Shown here piece by piece: positions 1-4,372 of a stretch of 4,372 nucleotides of DNA (position 1 is its first letter; every line of letters starts with the position of its first letter). Made by a program: the position numbers and the translations under genes. The notes below the pieces were generated by a model. The model saw nothing but the letters and a program-made list of their open reading frames with translations, searched no databases and had not been told where the DNA came from. This DNA comes from a virus. Its lineage: Duplodnaviria; Heunggongvirae; Uroviricota; Caudoviricetes. Location: positions 1 through 4,372 of IMG/VR virus record IMGVR_UViG_2778261571_000009, one strand, 5' to 3'.

Positions 1-171
1 ATGTCACTTGCAACCACAGTGAAGGAGAGCAAGTTACAGAGACGCATGTACACGCAGAAAGCTCTCTGGTATCGCCATAATGGTGACCGCGAAGGAATGC
101 GGGTATGCCTTAATTTGTCCAGAGTCGAAGTATTAAACCAGCGTTATTTCCTTGGGCCATGTCCATTCTGA
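1..171 (+). CDS. small ORF (56 aa) directly upstream of erf; possibly an Arf-like accessory recombination protein; may extend upstream of the window
   Basis: ATG at position 1, in-frame TGA at 169-171 (MSLATTVKESKLQRRMYTQKALWYRHNGDREGMRVCLNLSRVEVLNQRYFLGPCPF). Below the size cutoff of the supplied ORF track. Position just 5' of erf matches where arf sits in P22-type left operons (recollection, not sequence-verified). Upstream context is not visible. Confidence 0.4.
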   Translation: MSLATTVKESKLQRRMYTQKALWYRHNGDREGMRVCLNLSRVEVLNQRYFLGPCPF

Positions 172-181
172 GAACAAACAT

Positions 182-787
182 ATGAGCAAAGAATTTTACG
201 CAAGACTGGCAGCTATTCAGGAGAATCTGAACGCGCCAAAAAATCAGTACAACTCATTCGGTAAATATAAATACAGAAGCTGCGAAGATATTCTTGAAGG
301 CGTTAAGCCGTTACTGAATGGTCTGTTTTTATCAATCAGCGATGAAGTTGTGTTGATTGGTGATCGGTATTACGTGAAAGCCACGGCAACTATTACCGAT
401 GGCGAAAACAGTCATACGGCAACCGCTCTTGCACGAGAGGAAGAAAGCAAGAAAGGAATGGATTCTGCACAAGTTACGGGAGCTACAAGCTCTTATGCAC
501 GCAAGTATTGCCTCAATGGTTTGTTCGGCATTGATGATGCGAAAGATGCAGATACAGACGAGCATAAACATCAGCAGAACGCAGCAGCAAAGCAATCAAA
601 ACCATCACCTACACCTGAACAGGTTCTAAAAGCATTCACTGACGCAGCATTGCAGAAAAACACCGTAGAAGAGCTTAAACAGGCGTTCGCCAAAGCGTGG
701 AAGATGCTCGAAGGCACACCGGAGCAGCACAAAGCGCAGGACGTTTACAACATCAGACGAGACGAATTAGAAGGAGCGGCTGCTTAA
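182..787 (+). CDS. erf: Erf-family single-strand annealing protein (essential recombination function), 201 aa
   Basis: ORF 152-787 on the track; I prefer the ATG at 182 (MSKEFYARLAAIQENLNAPKNQYNSFGKYKYRSCEDILEGVKPLL...), which matches my recollection of the P22 Erf N-terminus. The TTG at 152 would only add a 10-aa extension. Stop TAA 785-787. Confidence 0.85.
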   Translation: MSKEFYARLAAIQENLNAPKNQYNSFGKYKYRSCEDILEGVKPLLNGLFLSISDEVVLIGDRYYVKATATITDGENSHTATALAREEESKKGMDSAQVTGATSSYARKYCLNGLFGIDDAKDADTDEHKHQQNAAAKQSKPSPTPEQVLKAFTDAALQKNTVEELKQAFAKAWKMLEGTPEQHKAQDVYNIRRDELEGAAA

Positions 788-1170
788 TGGCACATTCGAT
801 TACTGTAAGACTAAACAAGCCCGCAAGAGAGTTTCAGGCCGGGGAAAATATCGGATTCAACATCCGTGCTGGAGTTCAGTATTACGATCGCCAGACAAAA
901 AAGAAAGAATGGACAAACTACAGCGCCGTTGTATTTGCCAAGCCGGGAGCGCAAGCGGATTACTACCGTAGTGTTCTTGTTGAAGGTGGCATTGTGGAAA
1001 TTACCGGAGAAAACATCAGGGTTGATGTTTATCAGGGGCAAAATGGTCAATCAATCACTCTTGAATTACTGAATGCAAAGATTGGATTTGCAGCTTCAGG
1101 AAATGGCCCGCAGCAGCAAAGTAGTAACCAGCAGAACACTCCTGTATACGACGATTCCATCCCATTCTGA
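787..1170 (+). CDS. ssb: short phage SSB-like single-stranded DNA-binding protein (127 aa) with acidic C-terminal tail ...YDDSIPF
   Basis: ATG at 787-789 overlaps the erf stop (TAATG), with AGGAG at 772-776. The translation ends in DDSIPF, close to the canonical bacterial SSB tail (DDDIPF) that recruits host replication and repair proteins. The central EW...VVFAK...VEGG.VEI.G pattern fits an OB fold. The track start at 697 is an in-frame extension through the erf 3' end and is unlikely. Confidence 0.75.
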   Translation: MAHSITVRLNKPAREFQAGENIGFNIRAGVQYYDRQTKKKEWTNYSAVVFAKPGAQADYYRSVLVEGGIVEITGENIRVDVYQGQNGQSITLELLNAKIGFAASGNGPQQQSSNQQNTPVYDDSIPF

Positions 1171-1193
1171 TTTAGAAAAATAAGGATTTAATT

Positions 1194-1490
1194 ATGCCAG
1201 CGCCTCTGTATGGTGCGGATGACGCGCGCCGCTGTTCCGGCAATTCCGTATCGGAGGTGCTGGATAAATTCAGAAAAAACTACGATCGAATAATGTCTCT
1301 ACCGCAGGAAACGAAAGAGGAAAAGGAATTTCGCCACTGTATATGGCTTGCAGAGAAAGAAGAACGCGAGCGAATTTACCAGACATCAATCCGACCATTC
1401 CGCAAAGCCACATATACCCAATTCCCTGAATATATCGACCCGCGCCTGCGTAATTACCGCTCACGCTATGGCGCTATCAGTAATGACTGA
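1194..1490 (+). CDS. hypothetical protein (98 aa), lambdoid early-left small protein
   Basis: ORF on track. AAGGA at 1182-1186, 7 nt before ATG 1194. Stop TGA 1488-1490. Co-directional and tightly packed with neighbours. No family recognised. Confidence 0.6.
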
Positions 1491-1500
1491 GGAATTTACC

Positions 1501-1668
1501 ATGAGAGGACTTGCATACAATCCCGGCATTCTTCCGGCAGAAATGATTATTCGCCAACGCGTAAAGCCAATGCCATCGAGAGAGGAATTGCTTAAGAGAA
1601 AGAGTTTCGGTTCTGTTAATGACAACAAATATCTGAATGCGATGTTGCGCAAAGGAGGCAACCGGTGA
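1501..1668 (+). CDS. hypothetical small protein (55 aa)
   Basis: GAGGAA at 1489-1494, 6 nt before ATG 1501 ([15 protein letters not shown]...). The track lists a longer 1348-1668 ORF, but its 5' part overlaps the previous gene in another frame and lacks an RBS. Stop TGA 1666-1668. Confidence 0.55.
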
Positions 1669-1748
1669 CTGGACATGCAGCGATCCTCGACATGTGCTGT
1701 GGCAGCCGCATGTTCTGGTTAGATAAGAATGACGAACGGGCGAGATAA
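1665..1748 (+). pseudogene. 27-codon remnant resembling the N-terminus of a class I SAM-dependent (DNA?) methyltransferase; probably a truncated gene
   Basis: Strong AGGAGG at 1653-1658, 6 nt before GTG 1665 (overlapping the upstream stop as GTGA). Translation [27 protein letters not shown] then TAA at 1746-1748. 'ILDMCCGS' resembles SAM-binding motif I (hh-D-x-x-x-G-x-G region) at the start of methyltransferases. The ORF ends after 27 codons just before the next gene. Confidence 0.35.
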
Positions 1749-1798
1749 GCGATCGGTTAAGTGCTATAGTAATGCGCTTTTGTATTTATGGAGTGAAT

Positions 1799-2497
1799 AT
1801 GAAAAATATCCTACTGGCATCATTGTTAGTGGCATCGCCGGGTGCATTTGCAGCCAGCTTTGACTGCCAAAAGGCTTCGACAGCAATCGAACATAAAATC
1901 TGCGATAACGAACGTCTGTCAAAATTAGACGAACAGCTTAGCTCTGCCTATTCTAGTGCCCTCAAAGAAAACCCAGAGAACGCAGACACCATAAAAATGG
2001 TTCAACGTCAGTGGGTAAATATGCGTGGAAAACTCACTGATAATAAGGCTCTGGAGCTGGCTTATCTTATCCAAATTAATGGCCTCAAAGGTTTGGGGAG
2101 TTCAGTCAGCGTAACAGCGGCCAATGAGATACCCACGTCGACGCAGAAACATTCTGAAGAGCAGGAAGAAACAAGTAAGGCAGAAGTTAAGTCGGTCAAG
2201 AACGGCAATAAGCTAACCTTAGAGTCATTCCGAGCTAAATATGTAGAAGTAGATGGTGAGTATTACAGCACGACATCCATTCCTAGAGGCAGTTCGTTCT
2301 TGTTCACTTGCGCCAGTCGTATTGCTGATGACCAAGTGAATGTTTGGAAGAAACATGCAGCCAAAGAGGGCAAAATCGACCTATTCTTTGAGGTTGAGAA
2401 TCACTTACACACTGCTATGTTGAACGCCAATTTCCAGAAGTTGAATTCAGACCCTGCCAAAAGAGGTATTTGTAATCTGATTAACGCAGTGCCGTAA
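1799..2497 (+). CDS. secreted (Sec signal peptide) protein with N-terminal DUF1311/LprI-like domain, 232 aa; candidate moron
   Basis: GGAG at 1790-1793, 5 nt before ATG 1799. N-terminus MKNILLASLLVASPGAFA/AS has a basic n-region, hydrophobic core and AxA cleavage motif. The mature N-terminus SFDCQKASTAIEHKICDNERLSKLDEQLSSAY...QRQWVNMR matches the DUF1311 (LprI/YecT-like) pattern sFDC.kA.t..E..IC.d..L..LD..L...Y...QR.W as I remember it. Followed by a hairpin terminator. The track start at 1772 lacks an RBS. Confidence 0.75.
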   Translation: MKNILLASLLVASPGAFAASFDCQKASTAIEHKICDNERLSKLDEQLSSAYSSALKENPENADTIKMVQRQWVNMRGKLTDNKALELAYLIQINGLKGLGSSVSVTAANEIPTSTQKHSEEQEETSKAEVKSVKNGNKLTLESFRAKYVEVDGEYYSTTSIPRGSSFLFTCASRIADDQVNVWKKHAAKEGKIDLFFEVENHLHTAMLNANFQKLNSDPAKRGICNLINAVP

Positions 2498-2507
2498 GTA
2501 AATTTAG

Positions 2508-2537
2508 GGCCACAGTTGTGGCCTTAAATATTTTTTC
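2508..2537 (+). terminator. putative intrinsic terminator after the DUF1311-like gene
   Basis: GGCCAC (2508-2513) / GTGGCC (2518-2523) stem with loop AGTT, followed by TTAAATATTTTTTC containing a T6 run (2531-2536). The T-tract is 7 nt from the stem, so efficiency is uncertain. Confidence 0.5.
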
Positions 2538-2555
2538 AGCCTTTTCTTATTTGTA

Positions 2556-2580
2556 ATAAGCAGTACTTAGTAGTGCTTAT
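2556..2580. promoter_or_regulatory. imperfect 25-bp palindrome in an AT-rich intergenic region upstream of the TGT-like gene; possible operator or regulatory hairpin
   Basis: ATAAGCAGTACTTAGTAGTGCTTAT has perfect 7-bp outer arms ATAAGCA/TGCTTAT and a partly symmetric core. It lies in the roughly 200-bp visibly AT-rich gap 2498-2703. No convincing sigma70 -35/-10 pair could be assigned by eye. Confidence 0.25.
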
Positions 2581-2703
2581 AAAACAGAATAAAAAACATA
2601 TGACTTTGGCGATTACCCAGTAAAGATATTCGAAATAAATGTAAATATCGGCAATGAATAACAATCCTCGCACTCGCGGGGATTTCTTTTATATGGGGAT
2701 AAT

Positions 2704-3504
2704 ATGACCATCCACTTTCACGGCAGCCCAATATGGGGGGATGAGCATGCCCCTACAGATATGCTGATTAAAGCCCTTTACCGTGATGGTGGGGCTTTTG
2801 TTTCATTTGCCAGACCAGAGCAGATGAAAAAGATTGCCATGTTCCCTTGTGATATACGCCTTGATAACGGCGCTTTTAGCGACTGGATGAAAGCATTAAA
2901 GAAAGGCACTCCGGTAGACTGGAGTAAGAGGCGAGCAAAATTCTACGACTTTGTTGGGAAGTGGTTCAGCAGAATTGAATGGTTTCTTATACCTGACGTT
3001 ATCGAAGGGACAGAGGCAGAAAACGACGAGCAGATTGAGTTGGTTCCTGATTGGCTAAAATCAAAAGCGGTTCCGGTCTGGCATACCGACGAATCAATTG
3101 AACGTCTTTTACGCCTTTCTGGCAAATTTGAATGGGTGGCGATTGGATGCTGCGGCCCACACAGGCACATACGCTCTAAATGGTGGGAACAGAGAATGGA
3201 TGAAGTTTTCACTGAGCTTTATATCAATCGTAATTTGAAAGTGAAAATTCATGGTCTTCGAATGCTCGACGTGAGAGTTCTTGGTATGTATCCGTTCGCC
3301 AGTGCGGATTCTACTAATGTTGCTGTTAACGTACCGAAGACAGAGAAGCGATTTCCTGAGATTACTGACAAACTGGCACGTACAGCTGTACTTCGCGCTG
3401 CTATTGAAAAGGTGCACCCGCCATCGATATCAGCATGGGTAGACAGAAAGATGAGAGAGCCGGCGCAAGCCGGTTTTTTATTTGAATTCACCGACGCCGC
3501 TTAA
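2704..3504 (+). CDS. TGT-like (tRNA-guanine transglycosylase fold) protein, 266 aa, lacking the C-terminal zinc subdomain; candidate DpdA-like DNA 7-deazaguanine transglycosylase
   Basis: GGGG at 2695-2698 before ATG 2704. Colinear motif matches to TGT as I remember it: FVSFARPEQ (TGT FHLWLRPGQ), IRLDNGAFS (ILTDSGGFQ), WFLIPDVIEG (IVMIFDEC), FEWVAIGCCG (FDGYAVGGL), MYPFASADSTNV (DMFDCVMPTR). There is no CxCxxC...H cluster after the last motif. Confidence is for the gene being real; the functional call is inference (about 0.5). Confidence 0.7.
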   Translation: MTIHFHGSPIWGDEHAPTDMLIKALYRDGGAFVSFARPEQMKKIAMFPCDIRLDNGAFSDWMKALKKGTPVDWSKRRAKFYDFVGKWFSRIEWFLIPDVIEGTEAENDEQIELVPDWLKSKAVPVWHTDESIERLLRLSGKFEWVAIGCCGPHRHIRSKWWEQRMDEVFTELYINRNLKVKIHGLRMLDVRVLGMYPFASADSTNVAVNVPKTEKRFPEITDKLARTAVLRAAIEKVHPPSISAWVDRKMREPAQAGFLFEFTDAA

Positions 3505-3522
3505 TGCGGATTTCTTTTATCT

Positions 3523-3549
3523 GAACTCGCTACGGCGAGTTTTGTTTTA
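3523..3549 (+). terminator. putative intrinsic terminator after the TGT-like gene
   Basis: Stem ACTCGC (3525-3530) / GCGAGT (3535-3540), loop TACG, extendable by A3524-T3541, followed by TTTGTTTTA. A weaker CCGC/GCGG hairpin spans the stop codon at 3497-3509. Confidence 0.55.
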
Positions 3550-3561
3550 TGGAGATGATAA

Positions 3562-3729
3562 ATGCACTTCCGAGTAACAGGTGAATGGAATGGAGAACCA
3601 TTCAACAGAGTTATCGAAGCAGAGAACATCAACGACTGCTATGACCACTGGATGCTGTGGGCGCAGATGGCACATGCAGACGTAACCAATATTCGAATTG
3701 AAGAACTGAAAGAACACCAAGCCGCCTGA
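3562..3729 (+). CDS. hypothetical small protein (55 aa)
   Basis: GGAG at 3551-3554, 7 nt before ATG 3562. MHFRVTGEWNGEPFNRVIEAENINDCYDHWMLWAQMAHADVTNIRIEELKEHQAA, stop TGA 3727-3729 inside the loop of the following terminator. Not on the ORF track because of size. No family recognised. Confidence 0.5.
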   Translation: MHFRVTGEWNGEPFNRVIEAENINDCYDHWMLWAQMAHADVTNIRIEELKEHQAA

Positions 3730-3742
3730 TGGCGGTTTTTTT
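3719..3742 (+). terminator. intrinsic (rho-independent) terminator
   Basis: AAGCCGCC (3719-3726) pairs with GGCGGTTT (3731-3738): five G-C pairs, one G-U and two A-U. Loop TGAT, then a T-run through 3742 (GGCGGTTTTTTT). Confidence 0.7.
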
Positions 3743-3756
3743 ATTGGAGACAAGAA

Positions 3757-4101
3757 ATGTCAGATTTGGCTATGAAGGTTTTGAAATGGCAATCGACTGG
3801 CGATGTCGGCATCAGTAGCGCAACTCTTGCCTCAATCGCATGTGGACTGAAAAAGAATATCTATGGTCATCACTTCGGCGCTCCACATGACGTAGCCGAT
3901 TTCCGGCGATGCGTTGCACTTGTTGAGCAGATTCCAGAAATCAGAGATTCATTCGACAAGGTTGCAAAGCGCGTTCCGGCATTCAAAGGAATCCTCAACG
4001 AATGGGATTCCCTCGTTGCTCTGTTGAAGTCTGAAATGAAGACGTACGGGAACAAAGCACCAGAGACTTACAGAAGAATCAGCGAGCTACGCAAGGACTA
4101 A
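3757..4101 (+). CDS. hypothetical protein (114 aa)
   Basis: GGAGA at 3746-3750, 6 nt before ATG 3757. ORF on track. Contains a His-rich segment GHHFGAPHD. No family recognised. Stop TAA 4099-4101. Confidence 0.65.
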   Translation: MSDLAMKVLKWQSTGDVGISSATLASIACGLKKNIYGHHFGAPHDVADFRRCVALVEQIPEIRDSFDKVAKRVPAFKGILNEWDSLVALLKSEMKTYGNKAPETYRRISELRKD

Positions 4102-4140
4102 CCCGCCTCACACTCGATGAGGCCTGTTCATATCTGATAG

Positions 4141-4166
4141 AGCCGCAGTATGGCGGTTTATTTTTG
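4141..4166 (+). terminator. possible weak intrinsic terminator upstream of the AlpA/Xis-like gene
   Basis: GCCGC (4142-4146) / GCGGT (4153-4157) stem with one G-U, loop AGTATG, followed by TTTATTTTTG. A separate 6-bp hairpin GCCTCA/TGAGGC at 4105-4123 has no U-tract. Confidence 0.35.
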
Positions 4167-4180
4167 CCTGGAGAATTAAG

Positions 4181-4372
4181 ATGACCGATACCAGCCTGAT
4201 TCCTGAGAAAGAAGTGATGAACAAGCTCGGTGTTTCATCACGTCAGACAATCTGGAACTATACCAAACGGCACGGATTTCCGAAGCCAGTCAGAACCCAC
4301 CCCAAATCATACCTTCGTGAAGCTGTTGAAGGGTGGATTCTTAACGGTGGCGTTAATCAGAAATGCTCCTGA
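4181..4372 (+). CDS. AlpA-family helix-turn-helix DNA-binding protein; putative prophage excisionase (Xis) or regulator, 63 aa
   Basis: GGAGA at 4170-4174 before ATG 4181. ...EVMNKLGVSSRQTIWNYTKRHGFPKPVRTHPKSYLREAVEGWI... matches the AlpA/Xis-type pattern (L.s.stiy.....g.FPkPv.....s..W...ev..W). Location at the 3' end of the left arm is where xis sits just before int. Confidence 0.8.
   Translation: MTDTSLIPEKEVMNKLGVSSRQTIWNYTKRHGFPKPVRTHPKSYLREAVEGWILNGGVNQKCS

Follow-up and report, generated by a model that had tools for sequence, protein, structure and literature searches.

A mobile cassette encoding a predicted periplasmic DUF1311/LprI-family protein in a lambdoid prophage

The LprI-family gene and its cassette

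The window analyzed here, a stretch of 4,372 nucleotides from a tailed-phage record of the IMG/VR database (IMGVR_UViG_2778261571_000009, positions 1 to 4,372), corresponds to the delayed-early left arm (pL) of an HK97/HK022/HK106-type lambdoid prophage. It harbors a gene for a protein of the DUF1311/LprI family, called the window protein below, which a first-pass annotation, made from the sequence alone, had described as a secreted protein encoded in a terminator-bounded moron. The cassette, the gene and the parts of its product are as follows.

1648..2695, plus strand: lambdoid-level cassette; recurrent breakpoints at 1648/1649 and 2695 (joined to 3508)
1665..1748, plus strand: S-adenosylmethionine-dependent methyltransferase remnant; GTG start overlapping the DUF2737 stop, 27 codons, then TAA
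1742..2534, plus strand: minimal mobile unit (promoter-like element, ribosome-binding site, open reading frame (ORF), terminator); homology limits 1730/1742 to 2534 in 11 plasmid-type loci
1742..1770, plus strand: putative sigma-70 promoter, inferred; -35-like GAGATA at 1742-1747, 14-nt gap, extended -10 element TGCTATAGT at 1762-1770
1790..1793, plus strand: Shine-Dalgarno sequence GGAG, 5 nt before the ATG; invariant in all loci compared
1799..2497, plus strand: coding sequence (CDS) of the 232-residue DUF1311/LprI-family protein (phrog_4675); overall ratio of nonsynonymous to synonymous substitution rates (dN/dS) against the plasmid allele, 0.145
1799..1852, plus strand: predicted Sec signal peptide, residues 1-18; predicted cleavage between AFA and ASFDC
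1853..2098, plus strand: DUF1311/LprI-N helical domain, residues 19-100; Cys23 and Cys35, without the second Cys pair of canonical DUF1311
2099..2203, plus strand: disordered linker, about residues 101-136; AlphaFold2 predicted local distance difference test (pLDDT) 25-28; dN/dS ~1.0
2204..2494, plus strand: C-terminal alpha/beta domain, residues 136-232; AlphaFold2 pLDDT 82-95; dN/dS 0.053
2502..2537, plus strand: intrinsic terminator, hairpin 2502-2529 and T-run; 12-bp stem, loop AGTT; -17.6 kcal/mol, z -5.4

The gene had first been placed from 1772 onward. An ORF does extend over 1772-2497, but its conserved start is the ATG at 1799, because this ATG is preceded by GGAG, the PGAP pipeline annotates a 699-nt CDS (i.e., a start at 1799), every homolog opens with MKN or MKK, and the diverged plasmid allele has no counterpart of the ATG at 1772, which was rejected as a start because it is not conserved. 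The identification of the protein is not new, since databases already name it: RefSeq calls it a “lysozyme inhibitor LprI family protein,” and PHROGs places it in family 4675 with unknown function. In the literature searched, no study of a phage DUF1311 protein was found beyond a 2006 listing of RB49 ORF260c.

When the window was compared with plasmids, phage ev099 and 33 IMG/VR loci, two nested units with recurrent breakpoints emerged, 1648-2695 and 1742-2534. The larger one shows 96-100% identity among otherwise different lambdoids, irrespective of whether they carry Erf/Abc2 or Red (Exo/Bet/Gam) recombination modules; at 98%, it is found in Erf/Abc2-type prophages, in the lambda-Red-type phage ev099 and in many IMG/VR prophages. 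It includes the methyltransferase remnant and, downstream, a 3′ remnant of an ASCH-domain gene and a hairpin of the lambdoid backbone. The smaller unit (1730-2534 in some loci) has 82-84% identity to SSU5-like phage-plasmids of ~106-145 kb, where it lies in unrelated surroundings; these are carried by Enterobacter, Citrobacter, Salmonella, Klebsiella, Kluyvera and E. coli. The left edge of this unit coincides with the end of methyltransferase homology and with the start of the -35-like GAGATA, and its right edge with the end of the T-run of the terminator. PGAP calls the equivalent of 1665-1742 a pseudogene “missing C-terminus,” and this remnant accompanies the LprI cassette in both Erf-type and Red-type lambdoids and marks the point of insertion or replacement.

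The segment 1700-2700 is complete in 107 of 5,426 complete E. coli genomes (~2%), and the LprI-family ORF is intact in all 33 IMG/VR loci and in 126 plasmids. The gene is missing from the close relatives HK106, HK97 and HK022, where other genes occupy the slot. Among 185,579 species-representative genomes, a full-length copy was found in only one, on a contig of phage-plasmid size (108.7 kb). Furthermore, a metagenomic homolog with 38% identity is monocistronic between opposite-strand genes, and is followed by its own hairpin terminator. Moron architecture consists of a promoter plus a terminator, as reportedly described by Juhala, Hendrix and their colleagues in 2000. The present cassette varies in presence and absence, has sharp boundaries and carries its own terminator, while its base composition is not distinct: the G+C content is 44-45% in the gene and 43-49% in the flanks, and the downstream spacer alone is AT-rich at 36% G+C. 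As the first-pass annotation had proposed, the cassette is thus a moron-like unit in the Juhala/Hendrix sense, with the unit 1742-2534 intact in both lambdoids and SSU5-like phage-plasmids, and it replaced the body of a methyltransferase gene. It provides a clean example of a whole expression cassette exchanged between lambdoid phages and phage-plasmids.

Terminators on both sides had been suggested for the gene. Its own 3′ hairpin terminator is borne out: plasmid alleles keep the stem GGCCAC/GTGGCC with variable loop and flanks, and one C-to-T change still pairs as G-U. The 5′ side has a promoter-like element in place of a terminator; a candidate terminator at 1698-1710 was rejected (z -0.55). 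The 57-69 bp upstream of the gene contain GGTTAAGTGnTATAGT, invariant in 13 loci of both lineages, in which the sole variation of the TGnTATAGT motif is its degenerate n (C/A/T). Indeed, the upstream 69 bp are 87% identical to those of the plasmid allele, while the dS of the gene is 0.67. From this conservation, a putative sigma-70 promoter is assigned to 1742..1770. Its -35 element is poor, which explains why a consensus sigma-70 scanner found no canonical promoter upstream of the gene, and the extended -10 motif alone occurs at chance frequency within the window.

These last points would fit a different reading, which is concerned with regulation and not with function: the gene would be an ordinary delayed-early pL gene, transcribed only by N-antiterminated read-through in lytic growth, and the hairpin and the upstream conservation would be features of module junctions. 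The gene indeed shares the orientation of the pL operon, and nearly all small ORFs in this part of the genome are followed by a hairpin with a T-run (13 terminator-like sites found versus 3.7 expected). However, the unit with its upstream 57-69 bp and its invariant TGnTATAGT is also found in SSU5-like plasmids that have no pL operon, the distant homolog mentioned above is monocistronic, and homologs in T4-like phages have promoter matches of their own (see below). Transcription by read-through only is therefore considered rather unlikely, and the chances for and against expression of the cassette in lysogens seem to us evenly balanced.

Anatomy of the window protein and its phage relatives

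The N terminus of the protein follows the n/h/c rules of a Sec signal peptide (predicted), with cleavage after AFA as proposed in the first-pass annotation: a rule-based check found M-K, a 10-12-residue hydrophobic core (Kyte-Doolittle up to 2.6) and SPGAFA followed by ASFDC. This junction is conserved in ~60 homologs, which have small residues at -3/-1 and then (A/S)SFDC, while their hydrophobic cores differ. A lipobox is absent, and a lipoprotein was rejected on this ground. The following domain had been assigned to DUF1311, with a profile search suggested as a check, and Pfam PF07007 is indeed matched with 23.4 bits against a gathering cutoff of 22 (E 8e-5); homologs score 17-26 bits. The match is marginal and partial, covering residues 23-78 and profile positions 1-70 of 106. 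Its partial coverage is explained by the subtype to which the protein belongs, in which the canonical second Cys pair, “RN.C.D..C,” is replaced by an RNKxTS-like sequence, here RGKLTDNKAL; this Cys-less “RNKxTS” subtype also includes the homologs P0053, P0074, P0085 and P0129. The predicted structure has the helical fold of the solved DUF1311 family member. The protein therefore belongs to DUF1311 by sequence and by fold, as a Cys-poor subtype with an extra domain. Compared with Pseudomonas putida PP0307 (PDB 3GI7) and E. coli YecT of the same family (PF07007), it has no second Cys pair, and it adds a disordered tether and a 97-residue alpha/beta domain that is almost phage-only.

About 130 residues of unrecognized C-terminal sequence with two further Cys had been noticed earlier, and residues 101-232 (132 residues) are without a match in Pfam, NCBIfam, PADLOC and PDB. 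Structure prediction, which had been recommended for this half, gave a confident alpha/beta domain after the disordered linker, with a short helix, a beta hairpin (148-157) and helices at 166-189, 193-217 and 223-230. A Foldseek search against PDB yielded nothing significant, not even 3GI7, nor was there a match when PDB was searched by sequence and by profile, using the protein and the alignments A1, A4, A7 and P0081. A structure search of BFVD returned sequence homologs only, and NCBIfam gave only sub-threshold noise, with the A1S_1983 colistin-resistance family at the top (15.5 bits versus a cutoff of 150). An exhaustive HMMER search restricted to the C-domain retrieved just 12 cluster representatives with E<=1e-3 among 1.84 billion, one of them the protein P0127 described below, and a further homolog search with the C-domain alignment added merely fragments of close relatives. 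Cys171 and Cys225 in the C-domain are both conserved, and all four Cys of the protein are kept in full-length homologs; probably, each domain has one disulfide.

Selection on the gene was estimated from a comparison with its allele on an Enterobacter phage-plasmid (82% amino-acid identity, gap-free, overall dS 0.67). The dN/dS is 0.087 for the DUF1311 domain, and the folded domains as a whole fall within 0.05-0.09 at dS 0.5-1.4. The linker is variable in length and sequence between homologs. These values indicate that both folded domains are under strong purifying selection, and that the linker evolves neutrally and drifts freely. They also bear on the simplest alternative, namely that the gene is a decaying or functionless hitch-hiker. 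Such a view could point to the truncated methyltransferase gene and the 3′ remnant of another gene that adjoin it, and to its restriction to ~2% of complete E. coli genomes; however, it is contradicted by the constraint on both folded domains, by the intact ORF in the 33 IMG/VR loci and 126 plasmids and by the confidently predicted folds, and is so strongly disfavored that it hardly needs to be entertained. Conversely, the cassette and the protein anatomy as described here are regarded as very probable.

The same layout extends far beyond lambdoids. Full-length homologs with 26-30% identity, in which the four Cys and the order of the parts (signal peptide, DUF1311, linker, C-domain) are as in the window protein, are found in virulent T4-like Aeromonas and Klebsiella phages (Straboviridae), in the jumbo Aeromonas phages D3 and D6 and in SSU5, whose homolog an Aeromonas phage annotation names “SSU5 101.” Klebsiella and Krischvirus genomes carry the gene among early genes, directly behind matches to sigma-70/T4-early-type promoters (TTTACA-17-TATAGT with TG; TTGACA-17-TAAGAT). 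In addition, ~50 other proteobacterial proteins have the ASFDC-type N-module fused to unrelated C-terminal regions.

The most conspicuous pattern is found in Krischvirus (RB49/GEC-3S-like phages; P0054-P0072; locus L009, 2501-3301). In these proteins, the signal peptide, DUF1311 and the start of the linker are at least 93% identical (median 98%), while the C-terminal domain of ~125 residues ranges from 16 to 98% identity (median 28%) with an invariant bracketing Cys pair. AlphaFold2 predicts this C-domain to be all-beta, unlike the alpha/beta C-domain of the window protein. The Krischvirus C-domain looks like a polymorphic specificity module, and a hypervariable C-domain on a constant N-module is what would be expected of a recognition domain in an arms race, as the sequence pattern suggests. 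Taken together, the alignments point to a general architecture in which a flexible tether joins a constant DUF1311 module to a C-terminal module that can be exchanged. It is this modular family with its polymorphic C-domain that could prove new.

There are more unusual members. The metagenomic protein P0127 (locus L014, 709-1407) has the same C-domain as the window protein behind a lipobox, LTGC; no DUF1311 was detected in it, and next to its gene is one of the T5orf172/GIY-YIG type. From this protein it seems that one C-domain can be joined to either of two alternative N-terminal modules, DUF1311 or a lipid anchor, and that the C-domain is the working end. The contexts available for the distant C-domain homologs P0123, P0127 and P0129 span only 0.9-3.5 kb. 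In Aeromonas phage Aswh_1 (Ishigurovirus; locus L005, 2525-3127), the gene for the homolog is found, together with a single small ORF, on the opposite strand within the baseplate wedge cluster, between gp9/gp10-like and gp8-like genes, which is an unusual place for an accessory periplasmic protein. Klebsiella phage kv_tblp2 (L007; 140-421 and 2501-3253) has an annotated Spackle gene and a DUF1311 two-domain homolog ~2 kb apart in its early region.

Possible functions of the window protein

The name given by Pfam and PGAP, “lysozyme inhibitor LprI,” invites the reading that the protein inhibits animal (c-type or g-type) lysozyme and is a lysogenic-conversion virulence factor against host innate immunity. 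The protein is predicted to be periplasmic, many carrier strains were isolated from humans and animals, and Mycobacterium tuberculosis LprI was reported to inhibit lysozyme (as cited in PMC7933661). LprI also resembles the window protein in having an N-terminal DUF1311 and a separately folded second, C-terminal domain in the cell envelope. However, LprI is a lipoprotein, and its second domain is an MliC beta-barrel with documented inhibitor activity, which is sufficient for lysozyme resistance according to the account given in PMC7933661. The window protein has neither a lipobox nor MliC, and its C-domain is alpha/beta (all-beta in Krischvirus); an MliC-like C-domain is not supported by sequence and was rejected. 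Indeed, MliC/PliC (PF09864), Ivy, PliI and PliG were not detected in the window protein or its homologs in Pfam, NCBIfam and PDB searches with E up to 5-10. The PF07007 domain itself is stated to be without experimental support as an inhibitor, and the Salmonella LprI-domain protein ScwA has no lysozyme phenotype (PMC7933661). Furthermore, homologs are present in virulent Aeromonas, Klebsiella and E. coli phages, for which there is no gain from protection against animal lysozyme. The step from DUF1311 to lysozyme inhibitor, taken in the first-pass annotation, is thus weak, and an inhibitor of animal lysozyme seems quite improbable. The “lysozyme inhibitor” label is best taken as a family name rather than as a function and is probably misleading.

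ScwA (SL1344_0490) itself raises another possibility, in which the protein binds or stabilizes a murein hydrolase of the host or the phage, e.g., a lytic transglycosylase, and so would tune wall remodeling, lysis timing, or DNA entry or exit in the phage's own cycle. Like the window protein, ScwA is a soluble periplasmic, helix-rich LprI-domain protein that depends on disulfides and was horizontally acquired. Among periplasmic LprI-domain proteins of enterobacteria, a phenotype has been described for ScwA only: MltD levels are raised by it, its overproduction lyses cells, and its disulfides are required (PMC7933661). A role in the lytic cycle would fit the homologs in virulent phages, and the Aswh_1 copy sits in the baseplate cluster. 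On the other hand, ScwA is encoded on the chromosome and regulates MltD through a different architecture, with the LprI domain at the C terminus, and the two proteins showed no overall homology. With a conserved host target, the hypervariable Krischvirus C-domains would go unexplained, and the gene is far from the lysis cassette in every context seen. A modulator of this kind is accordingly judged rather unlikely.

DUF1311 proteins that act as immunity proteins of type VI secretion systems (T6SSs) provide a functional parallel. They are exported by Sec to the periplasm and counter cell-wall effectors; for example, cells are rescued from the toxicity of the cell-wall effector Etse4 in the periplasm by Etsi4, a DUF1311 protein (PMC12981562), the one pair for which neutralization has been demonstrated, and LprI-domain proteins with signal peptides adjoin lysozyme-like or transglycosylase T6SS effectors (PMC8867033, PMC9796082, PMC12135965). 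Such immunity proteins are single-domain proteins of ~100-150 residues, usually encoded beside the effector in T6SS islands, and orphan copies without an adjacent effector also exist. In contrast, the window protein has two domains and is carried by a phage with no effector nearby.

By analogy, the window protein may be a periplasmic binder that neutralizes envelope-attacking proteins arriving from outside and thereby confers exclusion or immunity; this is the reading to which we lean, tentatively and with less than even confidence. The cassette entered the pL region of a lambdoid prophage among the delayed-early genes, where it took the place of the body of the methyltransferase gene, and its terminator would keep the transcript made in the lysogen out of downstream genes, including the excisionase-like gene. 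The product is predicted to be exported by Sec and cleaved to ASFDC..., and the mature protein consists of the constant three-helix DUF1311 module, a disordered tether of ~35 residues and the rare alpha/beta domain. In the periplasm, it would bind and neutralize a cell-wall-cleaving or envelope-penetrating protein, for which a tail-associated lysozyme or transglycosylase of a superinfecting phage and a peptidoglycan-targeting T6SS effector are candidates, and the outcome would be exclusion or immunity for the lysogen or the infected cell. Probably, the C-terminal domain would set the specificity, and DUF1311 would be the conserved module for partner binding or for positioning. That the family also occurs in virulent phages, behind early promoters, argues for a benefit to the phage in the course of infection, and not only for the survival of a lysogen in an animal host. 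Lysogenic conversion, as originally proposed, cannot be the whole story, since full-length homologs reside in virulent T4-like and jumbo Aeromonas/Klebsiella phages. The superinfection exclusion also suggested in the first-pass annotation falls within the reading favored here.

A number of observations weigh against a periplasmic binder for exclusion or immunity, in addition to the poor -35 element, the scanner result, the chance frequency of the extended -10 motif, the uniform base composition, the marginal match to PF07007 and the replaced Cys pair given above. No effector or toxin gene adjoins the LprI-family gene at the loci compared; its neighbors are the methyltransferase remnant and the DpdA-like gene in the window, and hypothetical genes and ydfZ in plasmids. 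The shared domain is thus the sole basis of the analogy to immunity proteins. The role described for ScwA is the regulation of an endogenous lytic transglycosylase, without protection from lysozyme (PMC7933661), so the family has at least one non-inhibitor role. PADLOC defense models gave no match. Homology to T4 Spackle was tried and rejected, since hhalign gave a probability of 2% and aligned the signal peptide only. The occurrence of both Spackle and a DUF1311 homolog in Klebsiella phage kv_tblp2 means that they are not simple substitutes. The exclusion or immunity reading is drawn by analogy.

Phage exclusion proteins and the products of lambdoid morons act in the envelope, often against superinfecting phages. 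T4 Spackle and Imm, T5 Llp, phi80/N15 Cor, lambda Bor and Lom and HK97 gp15 are, like the gene in the window, small accessory genes that vary between related phages. The DUF1311 phage family differs from them in that it spans both temperate and virulent phages, and it has no sequence or profile similarity to Spackle, which would be a functional analog, and not a homolog, if the protein acts in exclusion. We know of no exclusion phenotype for the phage DUF1311 family. Extended to all these phages, the idea of a periplasmic binder would describe a phage-wide modular periplasmic family, in which a DUF1311 module, or in one case a lipid anchor, presents interchangeable and rapidly diverging C-domains for recognition (alpha/beta in the lambdoid, SSU5 and Aeromonas lineage, all-beta in Krischvirus) as a polymorphic exclusion or immunity system against the proteins with which rival phages or T6SS attackers penetrate the envelope, residing in a moron in temperate phages and expressed early in virulent T4-like phages. 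This broader proposal is conceivable, though on balance doubtful. If a role in exclusion or immunity is true, ~2% of complete E. coli genomes and many phage-plasmids of Salmonella, Enterobacter and Citrobacter carry a determinant of resistance to phages or T6SSs, which bears on the host range in phage therapy and on the effects of prophages in competition between bacteria, and the Krischvirus alleles would be a ready-made system for mapping specificity.

Neighboring genes and other elements of the window

The gene had been placed by the first-pass annotation in a region running from recombination to excision, which agrees with the surrounding genes listed here.

1-171: small recombinase-associated ORF
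182-787: Erf
787-1170: single-stranded DNA-binding (SSB)-like protein
1194-1490: Abc2 anti-RecBCD protein
1501-1668: DUF2737 protein
2663..2695, plus strand: second hairpin and T-tract; hairpin 2663-2684, -13.1 kcal/mol, z -3.9; tail GGATTTCTTTTAT repeated at 3508-3523
2704-3504: DpdA-like gene, followed by two small ORFs
4181 onward: AlpA/Xis-like gene

Erf, the SSB-like protein, Abc2 and DUF2737 are on one side of the LprI-family gene, and the AlpA/Xis-like gene is on the other. A prophage of E. coli 2018-01-1CC is 99% identical to positions 1-3746 of the window; it has N, Ral and other early-left genes upstream of the matching DNA, and a TorI-type excisionase gene next to dsdC downstream.

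Between the terminator of the gene and the DpdA-like gene, the spacer at 2603-2695 matches, with 87% identity, the 3′ end of the region around an ASCH-domain gene in the Shiga toxin (Stx) phage 933W. The hairpin at 2663-2684 with its T-tract is also found in 933W, lambda and many Stx phages that lack the LprI-family gene, and belongs to the lambdoid backbone outside the mobile unit, at the right junction of the lambdoid-level cassette. The AT-rich part of the spacer furthermore contains a near-perfect 12-bp inverted repeat at 2558-2582 (ATAAGCAGTACT / AGTAGTGCTTAT), with -12.5 kcal/mol and z -3.5 as RNA. An Rfam search returned nothing, including for this repeat, which could be a protein-binding site or a hairpin.

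At 3454-4163, elements composed of a hairpin and a T-run, of the type AGCCGCnnnnTGGCGGTTTTTTT, follow almost every small ORF, and a motif consisting of a T-run, TTTATGGAG and ATG is found both at 1774-1793 and at 3535-3554. The region resembles cassettes strung together at junctions between terminators and ribosome-binding sites. The DpdA-like gene (CDS 2704-3504, 266 residues) matches phrog_887, “queuine tRNA-ribosyltransferase,” with E 1.4e-102, and has no match in Pfam, NCBIfam or PADLOC. It forms a separate cassette, 2696-3507, with a 16-nt direct repeat, GGATTTCTTTTAT(A/C)TG, at 2680-2695 and 3508-3523; among prophages with the LprI cassette, it is present in some and precisely missing in others, where 2695 is joined to 3508. 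It may be a 7-deazaguanine DNA-modification gene that is solitary in this lambdoid early region.

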